From the sequence record PZ445551.1: 64,000 nucleotides of DNA. One strand, written 5' to 3'. Source of the stretch: a phage. The first letter of the stretch is position 1; every line of letters starts with the position of its first letter. The position numbers and the translations under genes were made by a program. This document shows, piece by piece, positions 6,919 to 25,195 of the stretch. Under the pieces are notes generated by a model. It had not been told where the DNA came from. It worked only from the letters and a program-made list of their open reading frames with translations, and did not search any database.

Positions 6919-6930
6919 GTTTACTCCTTG

Positions 6931-12378: not shown

Positions 12379-12595
12379 TATTTTGAAAATTTTTATTTTT
12401 ATAAAAAGGGGTGTGGGTTTCATGTACGGAAATTCACCCTCTGCACAGTATATCCAGAGTAAGTAGTATTCTATACCCTGTTAATAAAGTATTTAATTTG
12501 TTTGTTGGACTATGGTATCTGATCTTTAAAAGGCATACTATCTCTTAACTACTACTTATAACAGAACAGTAAAATCATTTTTATAAAAAGTACAA

Positions 12596-12795
12596 AATTA
12601 TTTAAAGTTTTTACAGATTTTTGGGTACAAATTTTGAAAATGAAAAGTTCAAGTTTGGTCAAAATTATTTAAAGTTTTTGTACGTATTTCTATTCAGATT
12701 TTGAAAATGAAAACTTCAATTTTTTAAAAATTCCCCAGTTTATTTAAAGTTTTTTTGCCTTTTTCCGTAGAAAAATCAAAAATGAAAAGTTCAAT
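12596..12795. repeat. three tandem direct repeats of about 65 bp
   Basis: Each unit has TATTTAAAGTTTTT, a variable segment, then TTTTGAAAATGAAAAGTTCAA. Confidence 0.7.
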
Positions 12796-12816
12796 TTCGT
12801 GTTTTTATAGGTGTGT

Positions 12817-12930
12817 TAATGAGAATCATTTTCGTTTGTAAATGAGAATCATTATCATTTAACTATGTAAGTGATAATCATTCTCAGTAAGAGAATGAGA
12901 ATCCTTAGCAAATGAGAATTTTCTCATTTA
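12817..12930. promoter_or_regulatory. cluster of five Fur-box-like palindromic sites
   Basis: AATGAGAATCATTATCATT, GTGATAATCATTCTC, AATGAGAATTTTCTCATT and related; near-matches to GATAATGATAATCATTATC. Confidence 0.45.
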
Positions 12931-13458: not shown

Positions 13459-13725
13459 GGTATCGCCCTTTCTTTGATGTGTGCCCTGGTTGGCGCGGTA
13501 GAAAGATAATAGCCCTTTCCTTTATAGATAGCAAGCAAAAAAGAAATGAAAAAAAGATTAAAAAAGGGGTTGACGTTCCTCACCTGGTAGCGTATTATTC
13601 ATCTTGTCGAGGGGGGCGAGGCACAACGACAATAAACAAAAGGAGGGCGCAATGTAGGACGGGCAAAGGTGAGGATCTCCACAATCCACCGTCACAATAA
13701 CATTACTTATAAAAGGTTGATAACG

Positions 13726-13821
13726 ATGATCAAGAAAGAAAACAGCTTGACGGTTGGAACGATTAACGCTATCATTTTCGCCGTTCCATTTTGGGTTGTA
13801 GTAGCGGTTATTATCTTTTAA
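13726..13821 (+). CDS. small hydrophobic peptide (about 31 aa)
   Basis: Not in ORF track; downstream of TTGACG-N17-TATTAT promoter-like element; weak. Confidence 0.25.
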   Translation: MIKKENSLTVGTINAIIFAVPFWVVVAVIIF

Positions 13822-13829
13822 AAATATTC

Positions 13830-13887
13830 TTGACAACGTTTTTTAATCTGATAAGATGTATCACATAGGGCGGCAATAGTGCCGCTC
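13830..13887 (+). promoter_or_regulatory. promoter + 5' stem-loop cassette
   Basis: TTGACA, 16 nt, TAAGAT; hairpin GGGCGGCAATAGTGCCGCTC begins a few nt after -10. Confidence 0.6.
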
Positions 13888-13909
13888 ATAACAGAAGAGA
13901 GAAATAATC

Positions 13910-14182
13910 ATGGCATCATATAGCGCATCAATGATCGTAACGGGCATCACTGGTAAACCTATGCGCGGTGGCGGATCTTTCGCTAACATCAATATTGATG
14001 GGCGTTTATCCCTGGACGCAGCGATCACAGTGGCACGGGAAACGTTTAAAAAAGAATGTAATTTCAATAAACAAGATTATCTCGGTTTCGCTATTGAAAA
14101 AACCGCGCGCTTTGTTGATTATAAAAGCCCGAAAATGGTTGATACTACACTAAAAGCGCAAGATGTAGCATTTTTGCTTTAA
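13910..14182 (+). CDS. hypothetical protein (90 aa)
   Basis: ORF after promoter/stem-loop cassette and SD. Confidence 0.55.
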   Translation: MASYSASMIVTGITGKPMRGGGSFANINIDGRLSLDAAITVARETFKKECNFNKQDYLGFAIEKTARFVDYKSPKMVDTTLKAQDVAFLL

Positions 14183-14185
14183 GGC

Positions 14186-14245
14186 TTGACACTGAAAAAT
14201 AATTTGGTAATATATACTACATAGGGCGGGGAAATGGTTTCCCGC
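14186..14245 (+). promoter_or_regulatory. promoter + 5' stem-loop cassette
   Basis: TTGACA, 16 nt, TAATAT; hairpin GGCGGGGAAATGGTTTCCCGCC. Confidence 0.6.
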
Positions 14246-14268
14246 CAAATCAAAGAAAGGGTAACACA

Positions 14269-14631
14269 ATGAGCAAGCAAATCAATACTATCATGTTAAA
14301 CCTGGTATCTTTCCGCGATGACGTGAAAAATCTTTCGCGTGATGCAGTGGATGCACGGATCGAAAGCTATCGCTCACAGATCGCAACATTACCGCTAAAA
14401 CGTGATCAACATGCCGCTAATATGATGCTTAATGCTATGCTTAAAAAGATGATTCAATGTGATCTTACCCTGGCTTATGAATATGCTGGCGATCTCTTTG
14501 TAACATACAATAAGCCCGTTCCAGGTATGAGCACAACCGAAGAATTGCATGCCTTAAATCTGCGACAAGATGCATGGGATAATATGCGCCGCGTTATGGT
14601 ATGGGTAGAAAGCGGCAAAATTTACGCATAA
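14269..14631 (+). CDS. hypothetical protein (120 aa)
   Basis: ORF after promoter/stem-loop cassette. Confidence 0.55.
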   Translation: MSKQINTIMLNLVSFRDDVKNLSRDAVDARIESYRSQIATLPLKRDQHAANMMLNAMLKKMIQCDLTLAYEYAGDLFVTYNKPVPGMSTTEELHALNLRQDAWDNMRRVMVWVESGKIYA

Positions 14632-14635
14632 AGGC

Positions 14636-14689
14636 TTTACATTACACGAAAACCTGATAAGCTATCTTAAAGCGGGAATAGTTCCCGCT
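14636..14689 (+). promoter_or_regulatory. promoter-like element + 5' stem-loop
   Basis: TTTACA with weak -10; hairpin GCGGGAATAGTTCCCGC. Confidence 0.4.
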
Positions 14690-14707
14690 TTCATAGGATA
14701 AAACTTT

Positions 14708-14854
14708 ATGAAACAATATGTAATGAGTATTCACACCAAAAACGGCGCTACTGTTACGACTCCGGCACGGTTTGCACTTGTAAACCGTTGCAAGAGACTA
14801 AAACGAGAGTTAAAAAATAACCGTGCAACGGGCTTTAAACGCTGGGGAGGATAA
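14708..14854 (+). CDS. small basic protein (about 48 aa)
   Basis: Not in ORF track; ATG after stem-loop; approximate coordinates. Confidence 0.4.
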   Translation: MKQYVMSIHTKNGATVTTPARFALVNRCKRLKRELKNNRATGFKRWGG

Positions 14855-14856
14855 TC

Positions 14857-15117
14857 TTGTTTTTTCTAAAAGTTTTTGATAATGTGATCGCTTTTGAACA
14901 TGCTACAACGTTCGACCTAGCGAGATACGCTATCAGGTTTAAAGATAATGTTTATCCCCGTGCTGGAGGCGGTTACACTATTTTTAATCATCGTAACGCT
15001 CAATTAACGGATATAACTAATCCAGATCCTGGAGTGTATCGCATAGGCTGGCTACCGTCAAAAGACGCGGCAAGCATGTTTAAGGTGTGTAAACTACTAA
15101 CAGAAGAGGCAAATTAG
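14857..15117 (+). CDS. hypothetical protein (86 aa), probable TTG start
   Basis: SD GGGGAGGA 7 nt upstream of TTG; no in-frame ATG near start. Confidence 0.45.
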   Translation: MFFLKVFDNVIAFEHATTFDLARYAIRFKDNVYPRAGGGYTIFNHRNAQLTDITNPDPGVYRIGWLPSKDAASMFKVCKLLTEEAN

Positions 15118-15118
15118 C

Positions 15119-15664
15119 ATGGGGCGTGAGTATGTGATCCAGTCCTGGGTAAAGCATGACGCTAATGATCCGCGCATAATACCAGATGACATGATCGATC
15201 ACATGGTAGGGTATAGCGGGGAGCAGATAGGAAATCGAGCGGCAAAGAGCAACGGCAACACAAAGGCGCGATCCGTTCGCCCTGGTTGGCTGGCAAATGG
15301 TAACGCTGACATTGCAAGCGCCGCAGATCCAAGCGATGACGCTAAAAATAATCCCTTATACAGCATTGATCCGGCTTTTAAGGTGTTAGAAGAGTATCCC
15401 GCTAAATTAGCCGCACTAGATAAGGCATACGAAGAAAAGCGCATGGCATGGACGGTATACAACACCGCTAAAATGGTGCTAGATGCAAAATTGATTAAAG
15501 CCCAGGAGAAGATCAATAAACTTGTTGCAGTAGCGCAAGAGGAAGACCAGGAGGAAGAGGAAGAAATCATGCCTACCCTGGAAGAGGAAGAGATCCAGCC
15601 ATACATGCCGACGGAAGAGGAAAAAAGACAAGCCCTAAAAAATTATGAAAATTGCATTGTGTAA
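15119..15664 (+). CDS. hypothetical protein with highly acidic C-terminus (181 aa)
   Basis: C-terminal QEEDQEEEEEIMPTLEEEEIQPYMPTEEE tract. Confidence 0.55.
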   Translation: MGREYVIQSWVKHDANDPRIIPDDMIDHMVGYSGEQIGNRAAKSNGNTKARSVRPGWLANGNADIASAADPSDDAKNNPLYSIDPAFKVLEEYPAKLAALDKAYEEKRMAWTVYNTAKMVLDAKLIKAQEKINKLVAVAQEEDQEEEEEIMPTLEEEEIQPYMPTEEEKRQALKNYENCIV

Positions 15665-15667
15665 GGC

Positions 15668-15725
15668 TTGACATATGCAAACAAGCCCCGTAATATGTAC
15701 CACATAAAGCGGGGCAACGCCCCAT
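15668..15725 (+). promoter_or_regulatory. promoter + 5' stem-loop cassette
   Basis: TTGACA, 17 nt, TAATAT; hairpin GGGGCAACGCCCC. Confidence 0.55.
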
Positions 15726-15745
15726 AAGGTGAAATAAAAAATCAC

Positions 15746-15773
15746 TTGACACCTGAAATCAGTAAGCTATAAT
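15746..15773 (+). promoter_or_regulatory. second tandem sigma70-like promoter
   Basis: TTGACA, 16 nt, TATAAT directly upstream of small ORF at 15811. Confidence 0.5.
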
Positions 15774-15810
15774 GCTTATATAGATTGAAACATTACTAAG
15801 GAATAAAAGC

Positions 15811-15990
15811 ATGGCTATTATTGCAAAAACTGAGATCGTAGGTTTAGATTCTATCATCCTGGCATATGAGGAAGCTATAGAAATGTATGTAGTGACCTAT
15901 GGTGATTATGTGCGTGAATACGAATACATTGATCTTGCTTTCGAATGTTACATTCGCCAGGTCAATAAAGCCTATGATGATTATCGTTAA
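15811..15990 (+). CDS. small acidic protein (about 59 aa)
   Basis: Not in ORF track; ATG after SD AAGGAATAAAAGC. Confidence 0.4.
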   Translation: MAIIAKTEIVGLDSIILAYEEAIEMYVVTYGDYVREYEYIDLAFECYIRQVNKAYDDYR

Positions 15991-16085
15991 AAGTTTTAGT
16001 CTTGTGCTATTGACAACGAACGATAGTACAAGCATAATAACTTTTATCGGGAATACTCCTAACTAATCAAAAGAGATTAAAGACT

Positions 16086-16451
16086 ATGGCTAAAAATATC
16101 AATGTTTCTGCTTATGCTACCCTGGCTAACACTGCTAAAATTGAACTATCCAGCATTGAAGCGGTACATATTAGCGCCCGTCGCTGGTTTCAAAAGTCTT
16201 ATGGTAATACTTATTTCTCTTTGATGGTTGACGTTGAGATCGGCGGTAAACTGATTGAAGTCGTTAACGTTCCGTTTCACTATGGCTACGGGGATCATTT
16301 TGATACCGTTGCCCTAGAAGAGTTTAGCAAGGTTGTCAACCTGGAAGGTAAAGAGTTTTCAAATTATGCCTACCTTTCCCGTTTTTGCCGTGATAATGGG
16401 ATCGCTGTATACAGTCATGCAAGCGATGTTAAACGTAAAAAAGATTTATAA
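16086..16451 (+). CDS. hypothetical protein (121 aa)
   Basis: ORF with SD AAAGAGATTAAAGACT. Confidence 0.55.
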   Translation: MAKNINVSAYATLANTAKIELSSIEAVHISARRWFQKSYGNTYFSLMVDVEIGGKLIEVVNVPFHYGYGDHFDTVALEEFSKVVNLEGKEFSNYAYLSRFCRDNGIAVYSHASDVKRKKDL

Positions 16452-16457
16452 AAAGCA

Positions 16458-16516
16458 TTGACAGCACGAATAAAAAGCATATAATACTTATATCGAGAGC
16501 GGGAATAGTTCCCGCC
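16458..16516 (+). promoter_or_regulatory. promoter + 5' stem-loop cassette
   Basis: TTGACA, 16 nt, TATAAT; hairpin GCGGGAATAGTTCCCGC. Confidence 0.6.
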
Positions 16517-16540
16517 TCACTGAAAAAAGAGATTAACATC

Positions 16541-16780
16541 ATGGCTAAATCTAAAATGTTCTTAGGTCACAAAAACAAAACTCATTGGAATGTAAGCCTT
16601 TGGATCAACAACGATGAAGGTTTTTATAATCTTGCGCGTGAATTTATCGCAGCTAACACCAATAAGAATGACGCAGCGCGTGATATGATGTTATTTCTTG
16701 AAAGTATGGATCAAGATAAAACGCCAGACGGTTACAAGTTCAGTAAAACTGCGATCCGCGCCGCGATGGTTGGAATGTAA
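16541..16780 (+). CDS. hypothetical protein (79 aa)
   Basis: ORF after promoter/stem-loop cassette. Confidence 0.55.
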   Translation: MAKSKMFLGHKNKTHWNVSLWINNDEGFYNLAREFIAANTNKNDAARDMMLFLESMDQDKTPDGYKFSKTAIRAAMVGM

Positions 16781-16873
16781 AGGAGACATAAAAATGAAAC
16801 ATCGTTCGACCTATCTCACAAAACGTTTTAGCTTAGATCATAAATTGGGCTATTACGGAAGAAATAGAAAATA

Positions 16874-16934
16874 ATTTGACACTGTTTAAAATTCTGGTAT
16901 AGTTTATCACATAGGGCGGGAAATGGTTTCCCGC
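16874..16934 (+). promoter_or_regulatory. promoter + 5' stem-loop cassette
   Basis: TTGACA, 16 nt, TATAGT; hairpin GGCGGGAAATGGTTTCCCGCC. Confidence 0.6.
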
Positions 16935-16957
16935 CAAATGAAAGAAAGGTTATCATT

Positions 16958-17185
16958 ATGGCTATCGTTATTGTTCGCGTATCCGGCACGGTTGGAATCT
17001 CCCAGGTAGTAGCAGTTATCACCGAGAAGAAAGGGGATGATCTTCACTCTTCCTTGAATAGCTGGGCGGTCGCTAACTTCGGGCAATGGTCGAGCGTTGA
17101 GTACATCGAATCCTACCAGGTGCCAACGATTAGCCTAACCGATCTAAATGTTGATCGCTTGTTGTGCCTGGATCAATTAAACTAA
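16958..17185 (+). CDS. hypothetical protein (75 aa)
   Basis: ORF after promoter/stem-loop cassette. Confidence 0.55.
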   Translation: MAIVIVRVSGTVGISQVVAVITEKKGDDLHSSLNSWAVANFGQWSSVEYIESYQVPTISLTDLNVDRLLCLDQLN

Positions 17186-17192
17186 AAATAAT

Positions 17193-17251
17193 ATTGACAA
17201 GATAACTAAAATCAGTAAAATGTAATGCATAGGGCGGCAATAGTGCCGCTC
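17193..17251 (+). promoter_or_regulatory. promoter + 5' stem-loop cassette
   Basis: TTGACA, 16 nt, TAAAAT; hairpin GGGCGGCAATAGTGCCGCTC. Confidence 0.6.
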
Positions 17252-17272
17252 CTAGTGAGAGAGATTATCAAG

Positions 17273-17488
17273 ATGGCTAATATCCGCACACTGTTAAAAA
17301 ATGCAAGTCAAGTTTTATTTTCAGATGACGAGTATTTCAACAAAGACATTACAGGCGTGAAAAATTTAAAAGACGTGAAGGATGTTATCGGTATTCGTGG
17401 ATCTTTACGTAAAGGTGACATATACGGTAACAAGGTGCAATATAAACTGTCAAAAGATTATGATTTTACTTTGACATTTATTTCATAA
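17273..17488 (+). CDS. hypothetical protein (71 aa)
   Basis: Start refined to MANIRTLL downstream of stem-loop. Confidence 0.5.
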   Translation: MANIRTLLKNASQVLFSDDEYFNKDITGVKNLKDVKDVIGIRGSLRKGDIYGNKVQYKLSKDYDFTLTFIS

Positions 17489-17493
17489 AACCG

Positions 17494-17555
17494 CTTGCAA
17501 TACTACAAAAATAAAGTAAACTGTATTCATCAAGGCGGTGGAATAGCCCACCGCC
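17494..17555 (+). promoter_or_regulatory. promoter-like element + 5' stem-loop
   Basis: TTGCAA, 17 nt, TAAACT; hairpin GGCGGTGG..CCACCGCC. Confidence 0.45.
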
Positions 17556-17579
17556 TAACAAAGAGAAGAGGAAAACATC

Positions 17580-17750
17580 ATGATCACTTTTGCTACCCGT
17601 GAAGCCGCTCGCAACGTTGCACGTAAAGTTAACGCCGCCAACCTGGGCGCTACGCTTAAAGCCCCGGTAAAAGATGAATCAGGGAAATGGATCTTCCCTG
17701 GTCTGCGTCACGCTGATAAGCTGGGAACATTAACGTTAAAAAATAAATAA
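17580..17750 (+). CDS. small basic protein (about 56 aa)
   Basis: Not in ORF track; ATG after SD GAGAAGAGGAAAAC. Confidence 0.4.
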   Translation: MITFATREAARNVARKVNAANLGATLKAPVKDESGKWIFPGLRHADKLGTLTLKNK

Positions 17751-17756
17751 TATCCG

Positions 17757-17816
17757 CTTGACAGTAGCATGATTTATAAGTAAAGTAACAACAACGGCGG
17801 GAAATGGTTTCCCGCC
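17757..17816 (+). promoter_or_regulatory. promoter + 5' stem-loop cassette
   Basis: TTGACA with TAAAGT-like -10; hairpin GGCGGGAAATGGTTTCCCGCC. Confidence 0.55.
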
Positions 17817-17836
17817 ATCAATAAAGAGATAAGATT

Positions 17837-18196
17837 ATGAAATCAGTAAAAGCAATTAAAACTTACATTTTGTCGGCTATTTCTTTTGATGGTACTACAA
17901 CCGAAAAAGAAAAAATCACCGAACTGATGCGCCGTTTTAACTCTGAATACTGGTATCCCGATAATCAAAAACGTTACAATTATAACGTGATTAAGGCGAT
18001 AGCCTCATGGTTACAAGGTTTACCGTCAGAAATCAATATTGCTTTTGATTATAACGAGATCGATCACTTGTTAATTGAATGGAAGTACATAAAAGAAACA
18101 AGCAAAGAAACAACCGTTACCCGTGAGCGGGAAAATTATTGGTTATATATTGCAAGCATGATCGTAATCCTGGCAAAACAGCATAACGTGGCGTAA
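17837..18196 (+). CDS. hypothetical protein (119 aa)
   Basis: ORF after promoter/stem-loop cassette. Confidence 0.55.
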   Translation: MKSVKAIKTYILSAISFDGTTTEKEKITELMRRFNSEYWYPDNQKRYNYNVIKAIASWLQGLPSEINIAFDYNEIDHLLIEWKYIKETSKETTVTRERENYWLYIASMIVILAKQHNVA

Positions 18197-18211
18197 TTAA
18201 GAGGAAGAAAC

Positions 18212-18349
18212 ATGAACGCATCACAGCAGATCGAAAAATTCAACCGCAGCAAGGCGCGTAAAGATTGGAACGAAGAGATCACCAAAAAAGGCGACAAGCG
18301 GAACAAAACAAAGAGAGATCGCAGCACAAAAAGATACTGGAACGAATAA
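18212..18349 (+). CDS. small Lys/Arg-rich protein (about 45 aa)
   Basis: Not in ORF track; SD AAGAGGAAGAAAC; followed by terminator. Confidence 0.4.
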   Translation: MNASQQIEKFNRSKARKDWNEEITKKGDKRNKTKRDRSTKRYWNE

Positions 18350-18353
18350 CAAA

Positions 18354-18378
18354 AAGGGCGCAATAAGCGCCCTTTTAG
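18354..18378 (+). terminator. rho-independent terminator
   Basis: Hairpin GGGCGCAATAAGCGCCC followed by TTTTAGC. Confidence 0.6.
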
Positions 18379-18466
18379 CTTATATAGAGGCTTGTTACCC
18401 ATAGGCAATGGTAACGCCAGGATAAGCCTATAAACCACGTTAGACAGCTTTACAGGAGCTTTAAAA

Positions 18467-18649
18467 ATGAAATTAGACGAAATAAGCAAGGCACTAGCCC
18501 AGGGGCAAAGGTTATGCGCCCGATATCGTGATCAATATGGCTTCATAACTAGCGGCGTGATCCTGGGGATTGAAGGCAATAAGATTTTTATTGACACGTT
18601 GAAAAACGTTGTATATAGTGACAATATAATCTCAATAAAACATATATGA
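18467..18649 (+). CDS. hypothetical protein (60 aa)
   Basis: ORF with upstream SD ACAGGAGC. Confidence 0.5.
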   Translation: MKLDEISKALAQGQRLCARYRDQYGFITSGVILGIEGNKIFIDTLKNVVYSDNIISIKHI

Positions 18650-18657
18650 GGCAAGAA

Positions 18658-19059
18658 ATGAAAAAATTATTGATCGCTGGTTTAATCTCTTTTGGCATGG
18701 TTGGAACATCTAGCGCGGCGATATCCTCCACAGTAGCAGAATTAAGCGCCGTTGATGCAATGGAAAACGTCATGCTTATTAATAACGCGATCCCCGATGA
18801 AATCATGGAGGATTCACACATGATCGCTTATGGTGCTGTTACACAACTAACGGCAAAAATAGATAAATCTATTGTTAACGGCTTAAATGAAGATGTGCCA
18901 TGTGAAATTATTACCAGTGTGCTGACTACTCAAAATTTTACGCCGTGGTTAAAAAGTATTCAAAAAGTACACAGTACAGCCGCAGATCGTAGCAATGAAA
19001 AACTAGTGTCAGCACTTGCAACGTATACCCTAGCAAAATGCACCGAGATAAAAGATTGA
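18658..19059 (+). CDS. putative secreted protein (signal peptide MKKLLIAGLISFGMVGTSSAA)
   Basis: Start refined to MKKLL with SD GAGG; N-terminal signal-like hydrophobic segment ending in SSA-A. Confidence 0.55.
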   Translation: MKKLLIAGLISFGMVGTSSAAISSTVAELSAVDAMENVMLINNAIPDEIMEDSHMIAYGAVTQLTAKIDKSIVNGLNEDVPCEIITSVLTTQNFTPWLKSIQKVHSTAADRSNEKLVSALATYTLAKCTEIKD

Positions 19060-19106
19060 CAACATAGAAAGCACGTTATAAGATACACACAACAAAGGAG
19101 AACTAC

Positions 19107-19409
19107 ATGAACGGCATAGCTAAAACGTTTTTTCTTTTTTCTGGTGTAAATGATCCATCAATAAAAGTCGATAGTGTAAAAGAAAACAATACTATCACCG
19201 CTAAATTGTTTCAAGATGAAACAAATAACGTGCTAATCATTAATCTTAAAGAAGTAACTAAAGGTTATTATACTATTGCTTACCATGCGATTTATCATGC
19301 TGGTACTAGTGAGGAAGTGCAAACAAGCAACAACGAAAGCGCGGCGCTACCTGGTGATCTGGTGCTGGGCGTTATCAGTTTAATTGTCAATGATTTTTTT
19401 AAGGAGTAA
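19107..19409 (+). CDS. hypothetical protein (100 aa)
   Basis: ORF after TTGACA/TATAAG promoter-like element and SD AAAGGAGAA. Confidence 0.55.
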   Translation: MNGIAKTFFLFSGVNDPSIKVDSVKENNTITAKLFQDETNNVLIINLKEVTKGYYTIAYHAIYHAGTSEEVQTSNNESAALPGDLVLGVISLIVNDFFKE

Positions 19410-19413
19410 AACC

Positions 19414-19509
19414 ATGCCCTATTTACATTTATTTTTCGGTATCTTATTGACAGGATCTTTTTTCTTCTGTATGCTTGTTTCTATTGTAAACCACGTTTTA
19501 AGACATTAA
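19414..19509 (+). CDS. small hydrophobic peptide (about 31 aa)
   Basis: Not in ORF track; SD AAGGAG upstream; weak. Confidence 0.3.
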   Translation: MPYLHLFFGILLTGSFFFCMLVSIVNHVLRH

Positions 19510-19518
19510 GGAAACAGC

Positions 19519-19638
19519 ATGAAAATTATTCCCGTACAATATAGCGTAATAAATCCAGCATACGAGGAAGGAAGGAAAACAAGCATGGCTTTATGTTGTA
19601 TTGCTACTATAGCCATGTTGTTATATATTGTGTTTTAA
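19519..19638 (+). CDS. small hydrophobic peptide (about 39 aa)
   Basis: Not in ORF track; SD AAGGAAACAGC; weak. Confidence 0.3.
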   Translation: MKIIPVQYSVINPAYEEGRKTSMALCCIATIAMLLYIVF

Positions 19639-19738
19639 TAGGTTTTATAGTTGTACGCTTTAAGGGCTTGACAATTTTTTGTTATGCTTTAAACTATATC
19701 TTGAAAACGGCAAAGGCCGCAAACAAAAGGGTAAAATT

Positions 19739-20062
19739 ATGAAATCTGTGATCGGTGTTTATTTGGATAACTCTGATTTTTTCTATCATCGCGCTCGTTT
19801 CCTTGATGCGATTGAAATGATAGAATCAGGCTTTAAAGAGTATCGCCTTGCACATGATGACCTGGAAGCATTACAGGGCAATAGTGTTTTTACATTGCAA
19901 GCTAAAGCACTATGCAAAAGCCGGATCGACATTGCGAGCAAAAAGATAGAACGCGGCATGTCCTGGTTGCGCACCGCAGAAATCAACATGGGGCAATGGT
20001 ACGGCGAAAACTTAGAAAATAAACATACTTTTGTCAATGTAGAAAATATTGAAGATTATTGA
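19739..20062 (+). CDS. hypothetical protein (107 aa)
   Basis: Start refined to MKSVIGVY downstream of TTGACA promoter-like element. Confidence 0.5.
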   Translation: MKSVIGVYLDNSDFFYHRARFLDAIEMIESGFKEYRLAHDDLEALQGNSVFTLQAKALCKSRIDIASKKIERGMSWLRTAEINMGQWYGENLENKHTFVNVENIEDY

Positions 20063-20124
20063 TTGACAGCACACCTAACGGGTAGTATATTGTATCTCAT
20101 AGAGCGGGGAAATGGTTTCCCCGC
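20063..20124 (+). promoter_or_regulatory. promoter + 5' stem-loop cassette
   Basis: TTGACA with TAGTAT-like -10; hairpin GCGGGGAAATGGTTTCCCCGC. Confidence 0.55.
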
Positions 20125-20144
20125 CTTAAAAGAAGAGATAAGCT

Positions 20145-20429
20145 ATGAAGATCACAAAAGCACTTTCCAACTATGCAGCACGTCGCGGATTATGTTTAAC
20201 CGTTGAAAATTTAGGGAAAGAAGATTTTTTGTGCTTTTGGGAGCTTGAGAATGATAATGAGTGGATCTTCTCTTATTCTATCTGCGAAGATCAAAACGGT
20301 TGTTTATTAACCTGGCGCGGTAATATCTATTTACCGGAAGAAATCAAAGAAGAATTACCAGGCACGATCATGACTGAGAAACAGCTTAAGGAAGTGATCA
20401 ATTTTGTAGGGCAAAACATTAAAAAATAA
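20145..20429 (+). CDS. hypothetical protein (94 aa)
   Basis: ORF after promoter/stem-loop cassette. Confidence 0.55.
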   Translation: MKITKALSNYAARRGLCLTVENLGKEDFLCFWELENDNEWIFSYSICEDQNGCLLTWRGNIYLPEEIKEELPGTIMTEKQLKEVINFVGQNIKK

Positions 20430-20430
20430 T

Positions 20431-20488
20431 TTGACACTAGGCAAACAACGTAGTAAAGTTTATCACATAGGGCGGCAATAGTGCCGCT
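20431..20488 (+). promoter_or_regulatory. promoter + 5' stem-loop cassette
   Basis: TTGACA with TAAAGT-like -10; hairpin GGGCGGCAATAGTGCCGCTC. Confidence 0.55.
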
Positions 20489-20510
20489 CATAACAGAAGA
20501 GAAACAAATC

Positions 20511-20681
20511 ATGATCCCGACTATGTTTTATGTATCGCGCAAAGGTCACAATATTTTTTGGTCTGAAGATTTAAATGAAGCTATGACGTTTGCCCGTGAT
20601 CGTGTCGCTATCGGTGGCGTTAACATCACTGTAACCGATGAAAACGGCATTGAATACTATAACGGCGACGATGAAGAGTAA
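20511..20681 (+). CDS. hypothetical protein (56 aa)
   Basis: Start refined to MIPTMFYV downstream of stem-loop. Confidence 0.5.
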   Translation: MIPTMFYVSRKGHNIFWSEDLNEAMTFARDRVAIGGVNITVTDENGIEYYNGDDEE

Positions 20682-20725
20682 TCAACAAGGCGGGATTAAT
20701 CCCGCCTGTATTAAAGGGTAATATA

Positions 20726-20863
20726 ATGAAAACTTTCAACGCAACAGCCTCGACAATTGGTTATATTATTACAGTGCAAGCCGTTGACCTGGTAGCGGCA
20801 GCAAACAAGATTAAAAAGATGATCCCAACAGGCAGCGAATTTTCCGTTTGGGAAGTAAAATAA
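20726..20863 (+). CDS. small protein (about 45 aa)
   Basis: Not in ORF track; preceded by palindrome GGCGGGATTAATCCCGCC and SD-like AAGGGTAA. Confidence 0.4.
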   Translation: MKTFNATASTIGYIITVQAVDLVAAANKIKKMIPTGSEFSVWEVK

Positions 20864-20865
20864 AT

Positions 20866-20924
20866 CTTGACAATAGTTTATTACTTGATAGAATGTATTT
20901 CGTAGGGCGGCAATAGTGCCGCTC
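20866..20924 (+). promoter_or_regulatory. promoter + 5' stem-loop cassette
   Basis: TTGACA, 16 nt, TAGAAT; hairpin GGGCGGCAATAGTGCCGCTC. Confidence 0.6.
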
Positions 20925-20945
20925 ACAACTAAAAGAGAAATCATC

Positions 20946-21140
20946 ATGGCGCTTAAAAAATTAACAAGCAATACTCGTTGGGATGAAATCGACGGGGAAG
21001 TATACATTTTCGCCCGTAAACCAGGTGATCAAAAATGGTCAAAGGCTTTTACTTGCCACCCTGCAACAATAGATCTAATAAAAAGTAAAGGTTTACGTGA
21101 AGCAGTAGCGAGAAGTTTACTGATCCCTTATAAAAAATAG
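20946..21140 (+). CDS. hypothetical protein (64 aa)
   Basis: Start refined to MALKKLTS downstream of stem-loop. Confidence 0.5.
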   Translation: MALKKLTSNTRWDEIDGEVYIFARKPGDQKWSKAFTCHPATIDLIKSKGLREAVARSLLIPYKK

Positions 21141-21141
21141 T

Positions 21142-21203
21142 TTGACAATATGCTGTTATCTGGTAAAGTGTACGACATAGGGCGGGGCAATAAGGCAACG
21201 CCC
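21142..21203 (+). promoter_or_regulatory. promoter + variant 5' stem-loop
   Basis: TTGACA with TAAAGT-like -10; GC-rich imperfect hairpin GGGCGGGGCAATAAGGCAACGCCC. Confidence 0.45.
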
Positions 21204-21221
21204 ATTAATGAGGGTAGAATC

Positions 21222-21326
21222 ATGTTAGAGAAAATTTTCACGGTTGTAGTAGTTGGCCTGGCGTTATCGGTTGGATTGGTTGCAACTATGGCTAACATGA
21301 TCCTATCTTCCCACGGTATTGGATAA
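21222..21326 (+). CDS. small hydrophobic peptide (about 34 aa)
   Basis: Not in ORF track; single predicted TM helix. Confidence 0.35.
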   Translation: MLEKIFTVVVVGLALSVGLVATMANMILSSHGIG

Positions 21327-21336
21327 GGTGAATCAA

Positions 21337-21552
21337 ATGATCACGAATAAGACAGGTAAAACAGAATTTTTACGCGGCTTGCAAATAGGTAAACCTGAGA
21401 TCTGGCATTGCACTAAATCCGCGCATAATGAAATGAAAGATTTTACCGCTACTTTACAACGTGTTAAAATATCTATCACGCAGAAAAAAGCCTTGTTAGT
21501 AGTAGAAAACGAGATACCGCAAACCATTATTATTGTCGAGCGTACAGCATGA
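21337..21552 (+). CDS. hypothetical protein (71 aa)
   Basis: Start refined to MITNKTGK. Confidence 0.5.
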   Translation: MITNKTGKTEFLRGLQIGKPEIWHCTKSAHNEMKDFTATLQRVKISITQKKALLVVENEIPQTIIIVERTA

Positions 21553-21935
21553 AAACTGAAATCATTATTGAAATCATCAACGGTTATAAAGAAGCCTTTA
21601 TTTTTGCTGAATCAGCCAGGGATCATGAAGGCTATTTTATTGATAACTTAGACGATTATGATTTTTCAGATCAAGCCCATCAGCGGATCATTCATGACGT
21701 AGCGGCTTATTGTGATGCCAATGATGCTGCTATCTCTGAGGCAATGAGCGACGGCGCTACAGCAAACCAGATCGGGAATGATTTACATTTTACCCGTAAC
21801 GGTCACGGCGTAGGCTTTTGGGATCGCCCTGAAATATACACTACTAACACCGCCAACCGCCTAACAAATGCAGCTAAATTAATGCCATCGGTGCATGCTT
21901 ACATTGGTGAAGATAATTTGATTTATATTGAATAA
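21549..21935 (+). CDS. hypothetical protein (128 aa)
   Basis: ATGA overlap with upstream gene. Confidence 0.55.
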   Translation: MKTEIIIEIINGYKEAFIFAESARDHEGYFIDNLDDYDFSDQAHQRIIHDVAAYCDANDAAISEAMSDGATANQIGNDLHFTRNGHGVGFWDRPEIYTTNTANRLTNAAKLMPSVHAYIGEDNLIYIE

Positions 21936-21941
21936 AAAGTA

Positions 21942-22000
21942 TTGACACCGATCCCCCATATGGTATTATTTACCACGTAGGCGGGAAATGGTTTCCCGCC
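21942..22000 (+). promoter_or_regulatory. promoter + 5' stem-loop cassette
   Basis: TTGACA with TATTAT-like -10; hairpin GGCGGGAAATGGTTTCCCGCC. Confidence 0.55.
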
Positions 22001-22023
22001 AGGTAATCAAAAAGGTAAATACT

Positions 22024-22413
22024 ATGCGCAACCTGGTTTCTGTTTCTAACGTTGAAAAATTTCAATCCTTGCAGGGTATCGTTAACAACGTAGCGCCTTT
22101 TTTAGTCAATGGCTTGATTGCAAAGATGAAAAATAAACATCATGCGGCATGGTCTGCTTACTGCTTTGATAATGATGAAAAAGCGGCTGAAATGATGTTA
22201 GATATGCTGTTAAATAGTGTAGAAACATCTTTACCGGAAAACATCGCAGAAGAGATCACCTATCGTTATAATATGGCGATCACTTACCAGGAGGTTGCGC
22301 AATTTAATATGATGGATGATGACGAACAACAGGATCAGGAAATGTTTTGGGAGTATGCAGATCGTCAATCGGCTTTTGATGAAAAGTTAGCGATGTATTA
22401 TAACGAATATTAA
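22024..22413 (+). CDS. hypothetical protein (129 aa)
   Basis: Start refined to MRNLVSVS downstream of stem-loop. Confidence 0.55.
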   Translation: MRNLVSVSNVEKFQSLQGIVNNVAPFLVNGLIAKMKNKHHAAWSAYCFDNDEKAAEMMLDMLLNSVETSLPENIAEEITYRYNMAITYQEVAQFNMMDDDEQQDQEMFWEYADRQSAFDEKLAMYYNEY

Positions 22414-22426
22414 TACACGGTAAAAG

Positions 22427-22455
22427 AAAGGGGCGCACTAAGCGCCCTTTTTTGT
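22427..22455 (+). terminator. rho-independent terminator
   Basis: Hairpin AGGGGCGCACTAAGCGCCCT followed by TTTTTTG. Confidence 0.65.
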
Positions 22456-22799
22456 ATTCTTTTTTCACGATGGAAGTAACACGTAAAGAATAAACGTAAA
22501 AGGTGGTGTAAAACAGCCTAAAACCGATTATAACCGCTTAAACAAGGTAGTAATGACTAATCACCTTGCCAGGATGAAAAAGCTGTTATAAAGCTATTTA
22601 GAGCGTTTAAAGCACATAGGAAATAATTTGCTTTTTATCTTGCCTTTTATCCTGCTTTTGATTATTATTATGGAACGGGCGGCACCTGGGGACAGGGGAA
22701 GGTAATCACCGGAAGATCCCGCTATATATTGATAGCTAATATCTATTAAACAACAAAACATCAAAGGAATAAACTATCAAATCTTTACAATTCTACCTA

Positions 22800-22859
22800 T
22801 TGACACAGGATCACCCTTATAATAAGATGTATCCAGTAGGGCGGGAAATGGTTTCCCGC
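22800..22859 (+). promoter_or_regulatory. promoter + 5' stem-loop cassette
   Basis: TTGACA, 17 nt, TAAGAT; hairpin GGGCGGGAAATGGTTTCCCGC. Confidence 0.6.
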
Positions 22860-22878
22860 TTGATATAGGAATCATACC

Positions 22879-23112
22879 ATGATCGAACAAATTAAAAGCA
22901 CTACACCAAATGTTAACGGCAATGTTTCACACTTTATCGGGGATAATGAAAGGGGTACACCATACGCCGCCGTAACCGTGCAACCTAATGGCGATTATTG
23001 GTTTACCGTGTACGGATCATATTCTTTCGGACGCCCGGCACATGATAAGATCTTGCAAGCGGTTAAGCCTACTGGGAAGAATATCACAGCAGAAAAATTT
23101 TATAAAAAATAG
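22879..23112 (+). CDS. hypothetical protein (77 aa)
   Basis: ORF after promoter/stem-loop cassette. Confidence 0.55.
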   Translation: MIEQIKSTTPNVNGNVSHFIGDNERGTPYAAVTVQPNGDYWFTVYGSYSFGRPAHDKILQAVKPTGKNITAEKFYKK

Positions 23113-23113
23113 C

Positions 23114-23142
23114 TTGCTTTATAGTCTCTGTTAATTTATAGT
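23114..23142 (+). promoter_or_regulatory. sigma70-like promoter without stem-loop
   Basis: TTGCTT, 17 nt, TATAGT. Confidence 0.45.
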
Positions 23143-23187
23143 TATCGTGTAGGGCAAACAATTTTAAACGGTAAACGAGGAATCACC

Positions 23188-23571
23188 ATGAGCAATATCA
23201 GCAACCTGGCGGCTACTGTAAACGGTAAAGATTTTAACGGCGCTGTAGATCGTGATCCTATGTGGTGCTTATCAGTGTTTAAAGGCGATCTGGTTGAAGT
23301 TAGAACAACCGAAGGGTATAGCGATGATTATAAATGCGAGATCCATTTACACAACTGGTACACGGGTAAAACTTATGCGCTGAATCATGCGTTTATCGGC
23401 AAGGTTGAATATAGAGAAATGATCGACGAAGAAACGGGGCAAGATTTTAGCGAGCATGTTTATATTCGTTCCGAGACATTAGCCGAACGTTTGATCGAGA
23501 AAATGAAAGCAAAAAATAAAATTAATTTATCTCATTGGATTGATATAACAAACGATCCAGCTTATCAGTAA
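23188..23571 (+). CDS. hypothetical protein (127 aa)
   Basis: ORF with SD AACGAGGAATCACC. Confidence 0.55.
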   Translation: MSNISNLAATVNGKDFNGAVDRDPMWCLSVFKGDLVEVRTTEGYSDDYKCEIHLHNWYTGKTYALNHAFIGKVEYREMIDEETGQDFSEHVYIRSETLAERLIEKMKAKNKINLSHWIDITNDPAYQ

Positions 23572-23585: not shown

Positions 23586-23615
23586 CAGGGCGCACAAAGC
23601 GCCCTTTCTTTTTAC
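23586..23615 (+). terminator. rho-independent terminator
   Basis: Hairpin GGGCGCACAAAGCGCCC followed by TTTCTTTTT. Confidence 0.6.
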
Positions 23616-23817
23616 CTAAATAAAGATGATAGCTTTTACCTATCAAAAACGTTCACCGAAAAAAGTGAATAGATCGCGGTATCGAGCTAATCAAGGAGCA
23701 GATGAACAACCATACCATGAAGATCATAAGGCGCTTACAACGTGTTTTAGACCGCTTATTTTTAATTTCTCAATGTAACTATCTGGCAAAAACAGCCTTT
23801 TTCTTGTCTTTCCTCTT

Positions 23818-23895
23818 AAATGATAATCATTCTTATTTATAGCTGATTATTTATGCAATAAACTGAATAATGCAATAATGATAATCATTCTTAAC
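23818..23895. promoter_or_regulatory. two Fur-box-like sites
   Basis: AAATGATAATCATTCTTA and AATAATGATAATCATTCTTAAC. Confidence 0.45.
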
Positions 23896-24260
23896 TTATG
23901 ACCATCTAACCTATAAAATAATAAGTTATCTAACTAAATTAAAACTAATTATCTCACCTTTATTTATAACTTACTGTTACTATCTCATTGATAACCTTAT
24001 ATTAAACAACAATAACCAATATAAATCATTACTAAGCTAAATATAATCTATCTAACCTTTAAAACTATAACTATAATCTATCGAATTGTTGCACAAAGTA
24101 ACTATTAAATTGTTAGTAACATTACTAAATAATTAATATCCTATCTATTTATGATCTAATCTTTATCTTCCTATCTATTACCTAAATAATCATTTCATAC
24201 AGTAATCATTTCATACAATAATTATAACAAGAAATATAATTCGCAAGCGTATCATTAGCA

Positions 24261-24430
24261 GCCTATGCCGGACACATAGGCGGCTAATAATAACGCAACT
24301 ACACACCCCACATAATAACCATCACCGATAGTTATTATTTGTGCTTATGTAGCTTGCAACAATTGCAAGCGCAACAATATACATGGTATATTGTATCCCT
24401 TACATTGTTGCGGTGCGTTATTATTAGCTA
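24261..24430. repeat. nested palindromes flanked by perfect 15-bp inverted repeat
   Basis: GCTAATAATAACGCA ... TGCGTTATTATTAGC enclosing GCTTGCAACAATTGCAAGC and CAATATACATGGTATATTG; also GCCTATG..CATAGGC. Confidence 0.6.
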
Positions 24431-24757
24431 ATGTTTAGAACATTGGCTATAATATAAGCTAAGTAATAAGCTATGCAATAATAAACATGGTGAATAATGA
24501 CATTGATGATCATAATGCGCCACCTTCCAGGGGGCGCTATGTGAACACAAAGAAATCTTTCTTGTCAAGAAAAAATATTGCCATTATTGCGCAAAATTAT
24601 TTATATCTGAATAGATGATTTTTCATACTATTGCCCCATATAACATACCTCATTTGTTGAGCATAGTTATAGCCTATTTGTTGAGCCTACTTTCTTAAAA
24701 GCGCAATAAATCAGAATTATCTTGATTTTTAGTCTGTTTTATAGTATAGAAAGTATG

Positions 24758-24778
24758 CAAATGATAATCATTATCAGC
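24758..24778. promoter_or_regulatory. Fur-box-like site (best match)
   Basis: CAAATGATAATCATTATCAGC, about 17 of 19 matches to GATAATGATAATCATTATC. Confidence 0.45.
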
Positions 24779-24940
24779 TATCTTCCACGGGTAGCACTAT
24801 TTCACGCCAGATCATTTCATTTGGCAAGGTGTATATAGATGTTTAGACTTGCCAAGCCATTGATTTACTTAGAATTTATCTGTTTTGTTGTGAGTAGAGC
24901 CTTTCTTGCTCAGAAAATAATCAAAAGTCTTATAAGTCAT

Positions 24941-24977
24941 TGAATGATAATGCAAATGATAATTATTCTCATTGATA
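24941..24977. promoter_or_regulatory. Fur-box-like palindromic site
   Basis: TGAATGATAATGCAAATGATAATTATTCTCATTGATA. Confidence 0.4.
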
Positions 24978-25090
24978 TTTGAGGGGGACGGTCGGCAGAA
25001 ATCGGGGGGCGCTGAAAATCGCGTTAAGCACCTCTCGCAAGCGAGCAGTATTTTGCGGCAAGTTATTGATATTATTGGCTTTACGCTTAT

Positions 25091-25195
25091 GAAAAGGGGG
25101 TGTGTCGAAATAAATCGGGTATACCGGAAAATTTTTGTGGCATAGATATTTATTTGTCTATATTATGTACAAAAGGGTGTGTTAAAAATATTAGG
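25091..25195 (+). promoter_or_regulatory. two tandem copies of AAAAGGG(G)TGTGT-AAATA-GGTATA motif (candidate phage-specific promoter)
   Basis: GAAAAGGGGGTGTGTCGAAATAAATCGGGTATACC and CAAAAGGGTGTGTTAAAAATATTAGGTATATA, about 80 bp apart, upstream of cluster starting 25333. Confidence 0.35.

Follow-up and report, generated by a model that had tools for sequence, protein, structure and literature searches.

Why would almost every small gene in one part of a phage genome have its own promoter, and why should these promoters be followed by hairpins of the same type? This question is raised by a 64,000-nt stretch of phage DNA (sequence record PZ445551.1; hereafter the window). In a preliminary description made from the sequence alone, repeated cassettes had been noticed between 13.8 and 23.2 kb of this stretch, each composed of a sigma70-like promoter, a GC-rich stem-loop, a Shine-Dalgarno sequence (SD) and a small open reading frame (ORF). 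Window positions 13800-23200 are 100% identical to the minus strand of Escherichia phage VivaForever (PP925843.1) and 94-98% identical to phages Paula, ESCO8, ESCO32, KKE7M, muut, PD06 and others, with Stephanstirmvirinae, genus Justusliebigvirus (phi92-like), as the nearest classified relatives. Because of the complete match to VivaForever and the high identity to Justusliebigvirus phages, sequence comparison assigns the window to VivaForever, a phi92-type Escherichia coli phage, and not to a T4-type (Tevenvirinae-like) phage. All whole-genome counts given here were made on the complete, reassembled genome of 146,096 bp. Our reading, to which we assign a probability of about 0.55, is that the region is an array of portable early-expression modules in which a hairpin caps the 5' end of the mRNA.

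Anatomy of the cassettes and structure of their hairpins

We scanned the whole window without bias for sites of the form TTGACA-like, 16-18 nt, TAnnnT, and folded the next 45 nt of each. The scan isolated a compact plus-strand block at 13.83-22.88 kb that contains 16 cassettes with promoter and hairpin. In addition, the array has four promoters without a hairpin (15746, 16010, 19056 and 23114) and one hairpin that has an SD and lacks a promoter (20688). The features are listed below; each of the 16 cassettes begins with its -35 element, and dG is in kcal/mol.

13570-13598, plus strand: promoter TTGACG-17-TATTAT upstream of the array; the muut deletion of cassettes 1-2 has its left junction here
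13830-13909, plus strand: cassette 1, TTGACA-16-TAAGAT, class-1 hairpin 13868-13887 and SD; ORF 13910-14182; dG -14.4, z -4.6
14186-14268, plus strand: cassette 2, TTGACA-16-TAATAT, class-2 variant hairpin 14225-14246; ORF 14269-14631; PD06 replacement junction at +19
14636-14707, plus strand: cassette 3, TTTACA-16-TAAGCT, hairpin AAAGCGGGAATAGTTCCCGCTTT 14669-14691; three ORFs 14708-15664; right junction of the muut 1052-nt deletion
15668-15745, plus strand: cassette 4, weak hairpin GGGGC-AAC-GCCCC 15711-15723; ORF 15811-15990; in tandem with the hairpin-less promoter 15746-15773, which is also upstream of the ORF
16010-16085, plus strand: hairpin-less promoter TTGACA-17-CATAAT; ORF 16086-16451; ATG-to-ATG deletion 15817..16086 in muut and PD06
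16458-16540, plus strand: cassette 5, TTGACA-16-TATAAT, hairpin 16495-16518; ORF 16541-16780 (DUF7249); chimera of two ESCO32 cassettes
16876-16957, plus strand: cassette 6, TTGACA-16-TATAGT, class-2 hairpin 16915-16935; ORF 16958-17185
17194-17272, plus strand: cassette 7, TTGACA-16-TAAAAT, class-1 hairpin 17232-17251; ORF 17273-17488; replaced from the -10 onward in KKE7M
17495-17579, plus strand: cassette 8, TTGCAA-16-TAAACT, hairpin AGGCGGTGG-AATAGC-CCACCGCCT 17533-17556; ORF 17580-17750; dG -18.7, z -5.6
17758-17836, plus strand: cassette 9, TTGACA-17-TAAAGT, class-2 hairpin 17796-17816; ORFs 17837-18196 and 18212-18349
18352-18376, no strand assigned: canonical bidirectional intrinsic terminator (A-run, GC stem, T-run); closes the first array block
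19056-19106, plus strand: hairpin-less promoter TTGACA-17-TAAGAT; ORF 19107-19409
19668-19738, plus strand: cassette 10, weak hairpin CGGC-AAAG-GCCG 19708-19719; ORF 19739-20062
20063-20144, plus strand: cassette 11, TTGACA-17-TATATT, hairpin GCGGGGAAA-TGG-TTTCCCCGC 20104-20124; ORF 20145-20429
20431-20510, plus strand: cassette 12, TTGACA-17-TAAAGT, class-1 hairpin 20470-20489; ORF 20511-20681
20688-20725, plus strand: orphan 'half cassette', hairpin AGGCGGGATTAATCCCGCCT 20688-20707 and SD, no promoter; ORF 20726-20863, swapped for a 270-nt ORF in six of six relatives
20867-20945, plus strand: cassette 13, TTGACA-16-TAGAAT, class-1 hairpin 20905-20924; ORF 20946-21140; 93.4% identity to FV3 from the -10 to the next -35
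21142-21221, plus strand: cassette 14, TTGACA-16-TAAAGT, hairpin GGGCG..CGCCC 21180-21203; three ORFs 21222-21935; KKE7M insertion with 27-nt overlap
21942-22023, plus strand: cassette 15, TTGACA-16-TATTAT, class-2 hairpin 21980-22000; ORF 22024-22413
22425-22453, plus strand: canonical intrinsic terminator, 12-bp stem followed by TTTTTT
22800-22878, plus strand: cassette 16, TTGACA-17-TAAGAT, class-2 hairpin 22840-22860; ORF 22879-23112; an extra ESCO8/ESCO32 module is inserted exactly at the -35
23114-23187, plus strand: decayed cassette, TTGCTT-17-TATAGT, conserved leader CGTGTAGGGC, no stem; Gp30.8-like ORF 23188-23571, then terminator 23587-23605

The cassettes share one order of parts, namely sigma70 promoter, GC-rich hairpin, A-rich spacer, SD and ATG. 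A perfect TTGACA is present in 14 of the 16, the spacer is 16-17 nt, the -10 is TAnnnT and the upstream sequence is A/T-rich. Promoters begin 1-9 nt past the preceding stop codon, the first paired base always lies 9-12 nt downstream of the -10, and 50-55 nt separate the -10 from the ATG. Fourteen hairpins fold at -13.7 to -18.7 kcal/mol, and the two at 15668 and 19668 are weak. The class-1 hairpin GGGCGGCAATAGTGCCGCTC occurs in four exact copies (13868, 17232, 20470 and 20905), and the class-2 hairpin GGCGGGAAATGGTTTCCCGCC at 14226 (two mismatches), 16915, 17796, 21980 and 22840 (one mismatch), with none expected for either; a sixth class-2-like copy at 20104 has a stem one pair longer.

These elements are strongly clustered. 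Promoter-like sites followed by a hairpin of -12 kcal/mol or better number 19 in the 146-kb genome, 13 of them inside the 9-kb block, and 1.0% of random 36-nt genome stretches fold this well. Similarly, 13 of the 14 GCGG...CCGC cassettes lie within 6% of the genome, the remaining one being at record position 120992. All genes of the block are annotated as hypothetical. When ten array ORFs were compared with PHROGs and Pfam, all PHROG matches were to families of unknown function and one ORF matched DUF7249.

The scan and the folding thus bore out the repeated promoter and stem-loop cassettes at 13.8-23.2 kb. The two near-identical hairpin classes had been located correctly to within 2 nt, and the picture of a plastic region of small ORFs of unknown function is supported as well. 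On the other hand, the cassettes number 16 and not about 17, and their hairpins start 9-12 nt from the -10 instead of within about 6 nt. The claim that each cassette drives one small ORF holds for about ten of them, and the others drive two or three (three for those at 14636 and 21142).

To characterize the hairpins, we pooled the window, the six relatives, ESCO13 (Phapecoctavirus) and FV3 (Vequintavirus), which provided about 45 distinct leaders and about 25 distinct hairpins. The stem base GCGG/CCGC is kept across them, and the inner stems vary on both arms (CA/TG, GAA/TTC, GAAA/TTTC, GGAAA/TTTCC, TGG/CCA and AGGA/TCCT). In an anchored tally, the pair inward of the invariant C is G.C in 14 cases, C.G in three, and T.A and A.T in one each. 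A covariance model with 9 pairs, built from nine seeds, recovered sites in 15 sources and gave an alignment of 56 distinct rows; Nernie, PHB05 and EC.P2 were used in this search only and are outside the analysis of junctions described below. In these rows, as upper bounds, 97.4% of the cells are paired, compared with 78.4% after shuffling (0 of 500 shuffles reached the observed value) and 39-63% with the partner slid, and seven of the nine pairs show changes on both sides. A MAFFT alignment of 25 leaders had its 3' arms out of register and was therefore excluded from the pair counts. The structure is thus kept while the sequence of its stem changes. Such variation with retained pairing fits a structure-dependent effect, as in 5' stabilizers, which is a comparison and not a functional test.

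The layout of promoter, hairpin and SD extends beyond the GCGG family. It was found with unrelated stems in an ESCO8-specific module (GGGTA-GAACA-TACCC), in FV3 (6634) and on the minus strand of the window at 59756 (AGGAGAGC-TAT-GCTCTCCT, offset 11). Two further minus-strand units of promoter, hairpin and SD were noted in the window, at 47742 (AACCCCC-GCAA-GGGGGTT, offset 6) and at 61954 (CGCTCCCA-CAAA-TGGGAGCG, offset 0); in the latter the start would fall inside the stem.

A genome-wide census of perfect GC-rich stems separated two populations. The first is of the bidirectional terminator type (A-run, stem, tetraloop and T-run, such as AAAGGGGCGAAAGCCCCTTT), scattered and unlinked to promoters. 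The second is the GCGG...CCGC cassette family, all on the coding strand, in which a consensus -10 precedes 13 of 15 hairpins by 9-13 nt; of the other two, one follows a weaker promoter and the other is an orphan. The 8-nt tails of this family are A-rich and contain 0-4 T, typically two (for example AAATGAAA and ATAACAGA), whereas evident terminators have 5-7 T and a preceding A-run. Three canonical terminators (18352-18376, 22425-22453 and 23587-23605) split the array and are the sole plus-strand sites that pass a terminator scan. Because the cassette hairpins form a separate population that is promoter-linked and has T-poor tails, they are not ordinary intrinsic terminators. In the automated annotation of phage Paula, most of these hairpins bear the label 'terminator' and are assigned to the strand opposite the genes, and the phi92 RefSeq record annotates just ribosome-binding sites in the array region.

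The fixed distance from the -10 predicts that the hairpin is transcribed into the 5' leader, and its presence in the transcript is further suggested by the coding-strand orientation, the variable spacing of the arms, and the unpaired A-rich spacer and SD. In thirteen predicted leaders that we folded, 3-4 nt separate the hairpin from the presumed 5' end, folding energies range from -14 to -18.7 kcal/mol (z -2.4 to -5.6) and the SD is unpaired. In addition, the conserved GCGG and CCGC halves are separated by a variable 8-16 nt or so and not by the fixed half-site spacing of an operator, which argues against a rigid dimeric DNA-binding site.

Several known RNA classes were also considered. An E-value scan of 12-25 kb against Rfam gave no family, the best match being RT-17 at 15713-15811, below threshold (27.4 vs 40.4 bits), and a tRNA scan of the window gave none. 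RNase III requires about two helical turns, and RNase III processing sites were rejected since stems of 6-10 bp are too short. Promoter hairpins of the N4 type were rejected as well, as those lie upstream of the start and the cassette hairpins downstream.

Gene exchange at cassette boundaries

We built collinear BLAST chains between the window and Paula, ESCO8, ESCO32, KKE7M, muut and PD06. About 15 distinct insertions, deletions and replacements of 25-1570 nt were observed among these six relatives. With the promoter core defined as -16 to +28 from the -35 start (10.2% of the region), 18 of 28 distinct junction ends fell in promoter cores (p = 7e-12 against the whole region), a statistic inflated by selection against junctions inside genes. 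When only intergenic DNA was used as the null, 13 of 22 ends were in promoter cores, with 28% expected (p = 0.002). Most of the other ends lie between the -10, the hairpin and the ATG, including five between the -10, the hairpin and the SD. The overlap at junctions is 7-70 nt.

Individual junctions illustrate how these exchanges are built. Two successive ESCO32 cassettes are combined in the window cassette at 16458, whose -35 and spacer are those of the first and whose hairpin and SD are those of the second; the 264-nt ORF that lies between these is absent. At promoter 17194, the window agrees fully with KKE7M over the -35 and most of the spacer; past this point the -10, hairpin, SD and gene all differ, until the spacer of the next promoter. 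Both ESCO8 and ESCO32 have an additional unit of promoter, hairpin and ORF with CTATTGAC (-35) repeated at its two ends, and in PD06 a promoter of the 13830 type is fused to the 14269 gene at CATAGGGCGG. Junctions were also present at hairpin-less promoters and at ATG-proximal homologies of 7 nt (15817/16086).

Exchange also crosses subfamilies (Justusliebigvirus/Stephanstirmvirinae and Vequintavirus/Vequintavirinae). KKE7M (reverse-complemented) 5607-6075 and FV3 6633-7101 share a 469-nt promoter-to-promoter module with 96.8% identity, and the genes that flank it do not align at the nucleotide level; this points to a recent horizontal transfer of one cassette-bounded gene. Islands of identity between the window and FV3 are few, and they begin at a -10 or a hairpin and end at the next -35 (such as 20893-21148, 93.4%).

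On the basis of the junction sequences inspected, the unit of exchange runs from the -10 through the hairpin, the SD and one or more ORFs to the next -35; the hairpin moves with the downstream gene, and the main site of crossover is the promoter. Promoters and leaders are nearly identical between modules and would therefore provide short homologies, by which recombination may insert, delete or replace whole units between close relatives and between subfamilies. We regard this evolutionary half of the reading, cassette-bounded exchange by short-homology recombination, as highly probable. The preliminary description had proposed a comparison with relatives for cassette-bounded gain or loss of genes, and such events, together with replacements, were indeed found. 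Its further suggestion that the hairpins are recombination substrates fits poorly, as the junctions fall mostly in the promoter core and the hairpin is not the main crossover site.

Role of the hairpin and comparison with known systems

What, then, might the hairpin do? Each module has a near-consensus promoter for host sigma70, followed by about 10 nt that include the conserved start region CA(C/T)(A/G)TAG, by a hairpin that is rich in GC and has 6-10 bp, and by an unpaired A-rich spacer, an SD and the gene. Host RNA polymerase probably starts at an A located 6-8 nt past the -10 (the A residues of the conserved CACATAG), which would place the hairpin 3-5 nt from the 5' end of the transcript. 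Emory, Bouvet and Belasco are said to have found in 1992 that 5'-terminal hairpins within 2-4 nt of the end stabilize E. coli mRNA. By analogy, it is most likely that the cassette hairpin acts like the 5' stem-loops of ompA and T7 phi10; in this way it would protect the 5' end against RppH and against attack by RNase E that depends on the 5' end, and would leave the ribosome site free regardless of the gene downstream. Among the nucleases that act on phage mRNA, RNase E is the main one, and 5'-monophosphate ends activate it (PMC3014915). In read-through transcripts that come from upstream, the hairpin may also block a 3' exonuclease. For the molecular role of the hairpin as 5'-end stabilizer or insulator we see close to an even chance.

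Several points weigh against this reading. Our literature search found no transcriptome or start-site study for Stephanstirmvirinae or Vequintavirinae, and the stabilizer model would fail if RNA polymerase starts inside or after the stem. The hairpin is not obligatory, because four promoters of the array work without it, and part of the similarity between cassettes reflects common descent or gene conversion. The 56-row alignment was fitted to its own model and includes both strands of palindromic sites as well as register shifts, which makes its covariation counts upper bounds. Sense RNA is not separated from a DNA palindrome either by the stem mismatches, which are roughly balanced (about 4-5 G.T vs about 3 C.A), or by predicted stability, which favors the sense strand in 17 of 29 distinct hairpins and the antisense strand in 10 (p = 0.22).

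One alternative, which we consider unlikely, is that the hairpin is a recognition site for a regulator, as an RNA element bound by a phage protein or as a palindromic DNA operator at +3 to +25; the regulator could be a boxB/N-like antiterminator, a translational repressor, a nuclease of early mRNA, or a repressor that silences all early promoters together. A location just past the start is typical of operators and of cis-acting leader RNAs, the element is common to essentially all promoters of what is probably one temporal class, and T4 has both a coordinated shut-off of early promoters and inactivation of early mRNAs by a nuclease (PMC3014915). The inner stems vary, but the outer base GCGG/CCGC and the asymmetric loop motif AAT(A/G)G are kept, which could reflect sequence-specific contacts, although the conserved loop may stem from common ancestry. 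However, the variable distance between the GCGG and CCGC halves and the two-sided changes of the inner stem fit a structure better than a rigid dimeric site, functional-looking cassettes have unrelated stems and loops (those of ESCO8, FV3 6634 and window 59756 mentioned above), and no candidate regulator was found among the neighbors (an AAA ATPase, a CapR/T5orf172 nuclease and a NADAR protein). It is quite unlikely that the hairpins are attenuators or terminators that stop or damp read-through from upstream, leave each gene chiefly under its own promoter and insulate inserted modules, as in the promoter-early-stem-loop elements (PeSLs) of phages RB49 and phi1. There, the stem-loop of PeSL211/210 lowered downstream lacZ as strongly as rrnB T1 (PMC2839356). 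The intergenic DNA of the array holds the cassette alone, as the promoters follow so closely after the stop codons, so that any insulation must come from the cassette, and the automated annotation of Paula favors a terminator too, albeit on the opposite strand. Yet the T-poor, A-rich tails set these hairpins apart from the evident terminators, canonical terminators at 18352, 22425 and 23587 already partition the array, a fixed offset of 9-12 nt is unneeded by a terminator (the stem-loop of T4-type phages is variable in position or upstream), and a strong terminator 3-25 nt past the start would abort the transcripts of its own module.

We find it very improbable that the hairpin is a functionless passenger, derived from one ancestral promoter-leader and copied with each module. 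The cassettes have high nucleotide identity that includes non-structural positions (CACATAGGG and AACAGAAGAGA), four promoters have no hairpin, and the 23114 unit looks decayed and still drives a conserved gene. These observations are outweighed by stem changes on both sides that keep pairing (97% vs 78% shuffled and 39-63% slid), by unrelated hairpins at the same offset in other modules and another subfamily, and by the rarity of hairpins this strong in random genome stretches (about 1%). The least probable of the explanations, in our view, is that the hairpins are DNA recombination substrates (cruciform or single-stranded) for a structure-specific nuclease or recombinase, in the manner of integrons or of the 'mini-circle' of PeSLs. 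Arbiol et al. described mini-circles between neighboring PeSLs, with one crossover in the loop of a stem-loop, and speculated that the G-rich PeSL stem is a target of a protein (PMC2839356). In the window, five junction ends lie between the -10, the hairpin and the SD, one fusion is at CATAGGGCGG, and a gene for a GIY-YIG-type (T5orf172) endonuclease is present 2 kb upstream. However, in most cases (18 of 28) the junction end falls in the -35 and spacer and not in the hairpin, which is inherited with the downstream gene; junctions at hairpin-less promoters and at 7-nt ATG-proximal homologies are the ordinary short-homology pattern; neither an integrase nor an HUH-type enzyme was found nearby; and the fixed offset from the -10 would be left unexplained.

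A bolder form of these ideas, highly unlikely in our estimate, is that the leader hairpins, with their GCGG/CCGC base and AAT(A/G)G loop, are read by a dedicated phage factor, either a structure-specific recombinase or nuclease that mobilizes cassettes or an RNA-binding regulator of the early class. If so, the 97%-identical module shared across subfamilies would reflect active exchange and not chance homologous recombination, and with the recombinase or nuclease there would be an integron-like mobilization of cassettes between co-infecting phages, in a virulent phage.

The closest known system is that of the PeSLs, which have been described in the T4-type phages RB49/phi1, T4/PST and KVP40/nt-1 (Arbiol et al. 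2010, PMC2839356; Comeau et al. 2014, PMC4122927). The PeSL stem-loop of RB49/phi1 is mostly between or over the -35 and -10, in five positional subclasses, and that of PST and nt-1 is just upstream of the promoter (PMC2839356; PMC4122927); it has been demonstrated to terminate transcription (PMC2839356). The preliminary description had held that the cassettes match these elements, and this is true in part. In both systems, repeated cassettes of about 80-100 bp with a near-consensus sigma70 promoter, a stem-loop and an SD are packed among small genes of unknown function in a plastic region, and the insertion, deletion and replacement junctions of close relatives lie in the cassettes and leave chimeric cassettes behind. 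In contrast, the VivaForever cassettes belong to Stephanstirmvirinae, with relatives in Vequintavirinae, their hairpin is fixed 9-12 nt past the -10 and not within or upstream of the promoter, and their crossovers are mainly in the -35 and spacer. They also lack the G-run/C-run stem and the U-tract, and a terminator role is therefore unlikely. VivaForever therefore has regulatory cassettes that resemble PeSLs and bound mobile gene modules, without being PeSLs in the narrow sense. In the literature that we searched, PeSLs were reported only in T4-like phages, and the phi92 genome paper, which was outside that search, may mention the elements. The 20688 and 23114 units look like decaying cassettes, comparable to the 'half PeSLs' of T4-type phages.

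With the 5' stabilizers (the ompA 5' untranslated region and the T7 phi10 leader, reportedly characterized by Emory, Bouvet and Belasco in 1992 and by Mertens et al. in 1996) the cassettes share a stem-loop probably near the 5' end, an A/U-rich spacer and an SD, and the overall length and layout are close to those of the phi10 leader. Such stabilizers act whatever the sequence of their stem, in line with the stem variation in VivaForever. They differ in that the ompA and phi10 elements are single and experimentally proven, whereas the VivaForever elements are about 16 repeats on promoters of host RNA polymerase with predicted 5' ends.

Host-type promoters concentrated in a region of short hypothetical ORFs, and read as early, are also known from rV5, with 33 clustered sigma70-like promoters (PMC3606486), and from the Certrevirus phages CB7, CR3, CR8 and CR9, whose early promoter is AAAA-N3-TGTTGAC-N19-TATAAT (PMC7344957). 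These papers describe promoters only, with neither a stem-loop nor a link to gene shuffling; the words 'stem-loop' and 'hairpin' never occur in the CB7 paper (PMC7344957).

Self-contained units or duplicated promoters that move with the gene they drive recall two further ideas, the morons, a concept said to be that of Juhala and Hendrix, and the mobile promoters reportedly described by Matus-Garcia et al. in 2012. Unlike morons, which are single insertions with their own promoter and terminator in temperate phages, the VivaForever units have no terminator, are arranged in tandem and share one leader design. The attC sites of integrons also provide a short hairpin for each gene cassette, and the boxB of lambda nut is a hairpin just downstream of early promoters. 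These are analogies only, since neither an integrase nor an N-like protein was found in the neighborhood, the junctions are outside the hairpin, and the stems vary. An integron-like system was rejected, as no integrase-like gene was found next to the array.

Distribution, flanking regions and significance

BLAST searches found the cassettes in about 134-148 phage records, essentially all of Justusliebigvirus or Phapecoctavirus. In rV5-like phages the matches were limited to the hairpin and leader, and in IMG/VR the exact hairpins were present in just two contigs. Several unannotated records of 146 kb labeled 'Campylobacter phage' (A150, C3, A145 and others) are about 94% identical to the coliphage region, and the cassette also occurs in the records 'Enterococcus phage heks', 'Acinetobacter phage ABPW7' and 'Pseudomonas phage PsgM04F'. 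Such records probably represent mislabeled hosts or contaminated assemblies, not real host jumps.

Just upstream of the array are genes for an AAA ATPase (9452-10579), for a protein with three CapR homology domains and a T5orf172 (GIY-YIG-type) nuclease domain (10654-11826), and for a NADAR-domain protein (11827-12378). Since ADP-ribosylation is reversed by NADAR enzymes, the NADAR gene could serve in counter-defense, presumably against DarT-type toxins. Next to them, an ORF-poor stretch of about 1.4 kb contains three AT-rich direct repeats of about 70-79 nt that are 71-72% identical (window 12577-12797); a repeat_region is annotated at the equivalent position in the muut record, and the repeats are possibly an origin or another cis-acting region. 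Between promoter 13570 and cassette 1, after a long leader, a 31-codon ORF (13727-13821) encodes the strongly hydrophobic peptide MIKKENSLTVGTINAIIFAVPFWVVVAVIIF and is lost together with cassettes 1-2 in the 1052-nt deletion of muut.

Two other stretches are poor in ORFs. The first, between the terminator 22425-22453 and promoter 22800, is 350 nt long and ORF-free (22454-22800); it has neither repeats nor an Rfam match, and its folding shows no excess stability (z +0.7). A promoter-like TTGCCT-17-TATTAT lies in it at 22640, with ACGGGCGG after it, and the 1570-nt replacement of PD06 ends at 22645. In the second (23600-25200, about 1.6 kb), no ORF exceeds about 57 aa and tRNAs are absent; the ORFs annotated there one after another in the source record measure about 30-46 aa, and the DNA is dense in short AT-rich direct and inverted repeats and in the Fur-like boxes described below. 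The rV5 genome map also marks a 'non-coding' box without ORFs (PMC3606486), possibly at the equivalent place.

Palindromes that resemble what we take to be the Fur consensus form two clusters flanking the array in ORF-poor, AT-rich DNA (window 12815-12882 and 23819-24967). Five matches to GATAATGATAATCATTATC within three mismatches were present vs 0.10 expected, including those at 12815, 12838, 23874 and 24757, and the core AATGATAATCATT had 11 matches within one mismatch vs 0.34 expected. By sequence likeness, these boxes could bind host Fur, either for control in response to iron or to titrate Fur, or could serve a phage protein as operators.

Public annotations currently omit the cassette elements or mislabel them as antisense terminators. 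The combination of promoter, 5' hairpin, A-rich spacer and SD amounts to a compact expression unit that is independent of the gene it serves and that could be reused in phage engineering and synthetic biology, and near-identical modules cross the boundaries of subfamilies. If our reading is correct, the principle of PeSLs, in which repeated regulatory cassettes serve as linkers for modular shuffling, would not be peculiar to T4-type phages, and would have arisen in or spread to unrelated large coliphages that are common in therapy collections (relatives of phi92, rV5 and phAPEC8). It would also yield a specific, testable rule for the places at which these genomes gain and lose accessory early genes, which are likely the host-takeover and anti-defense repertoire.

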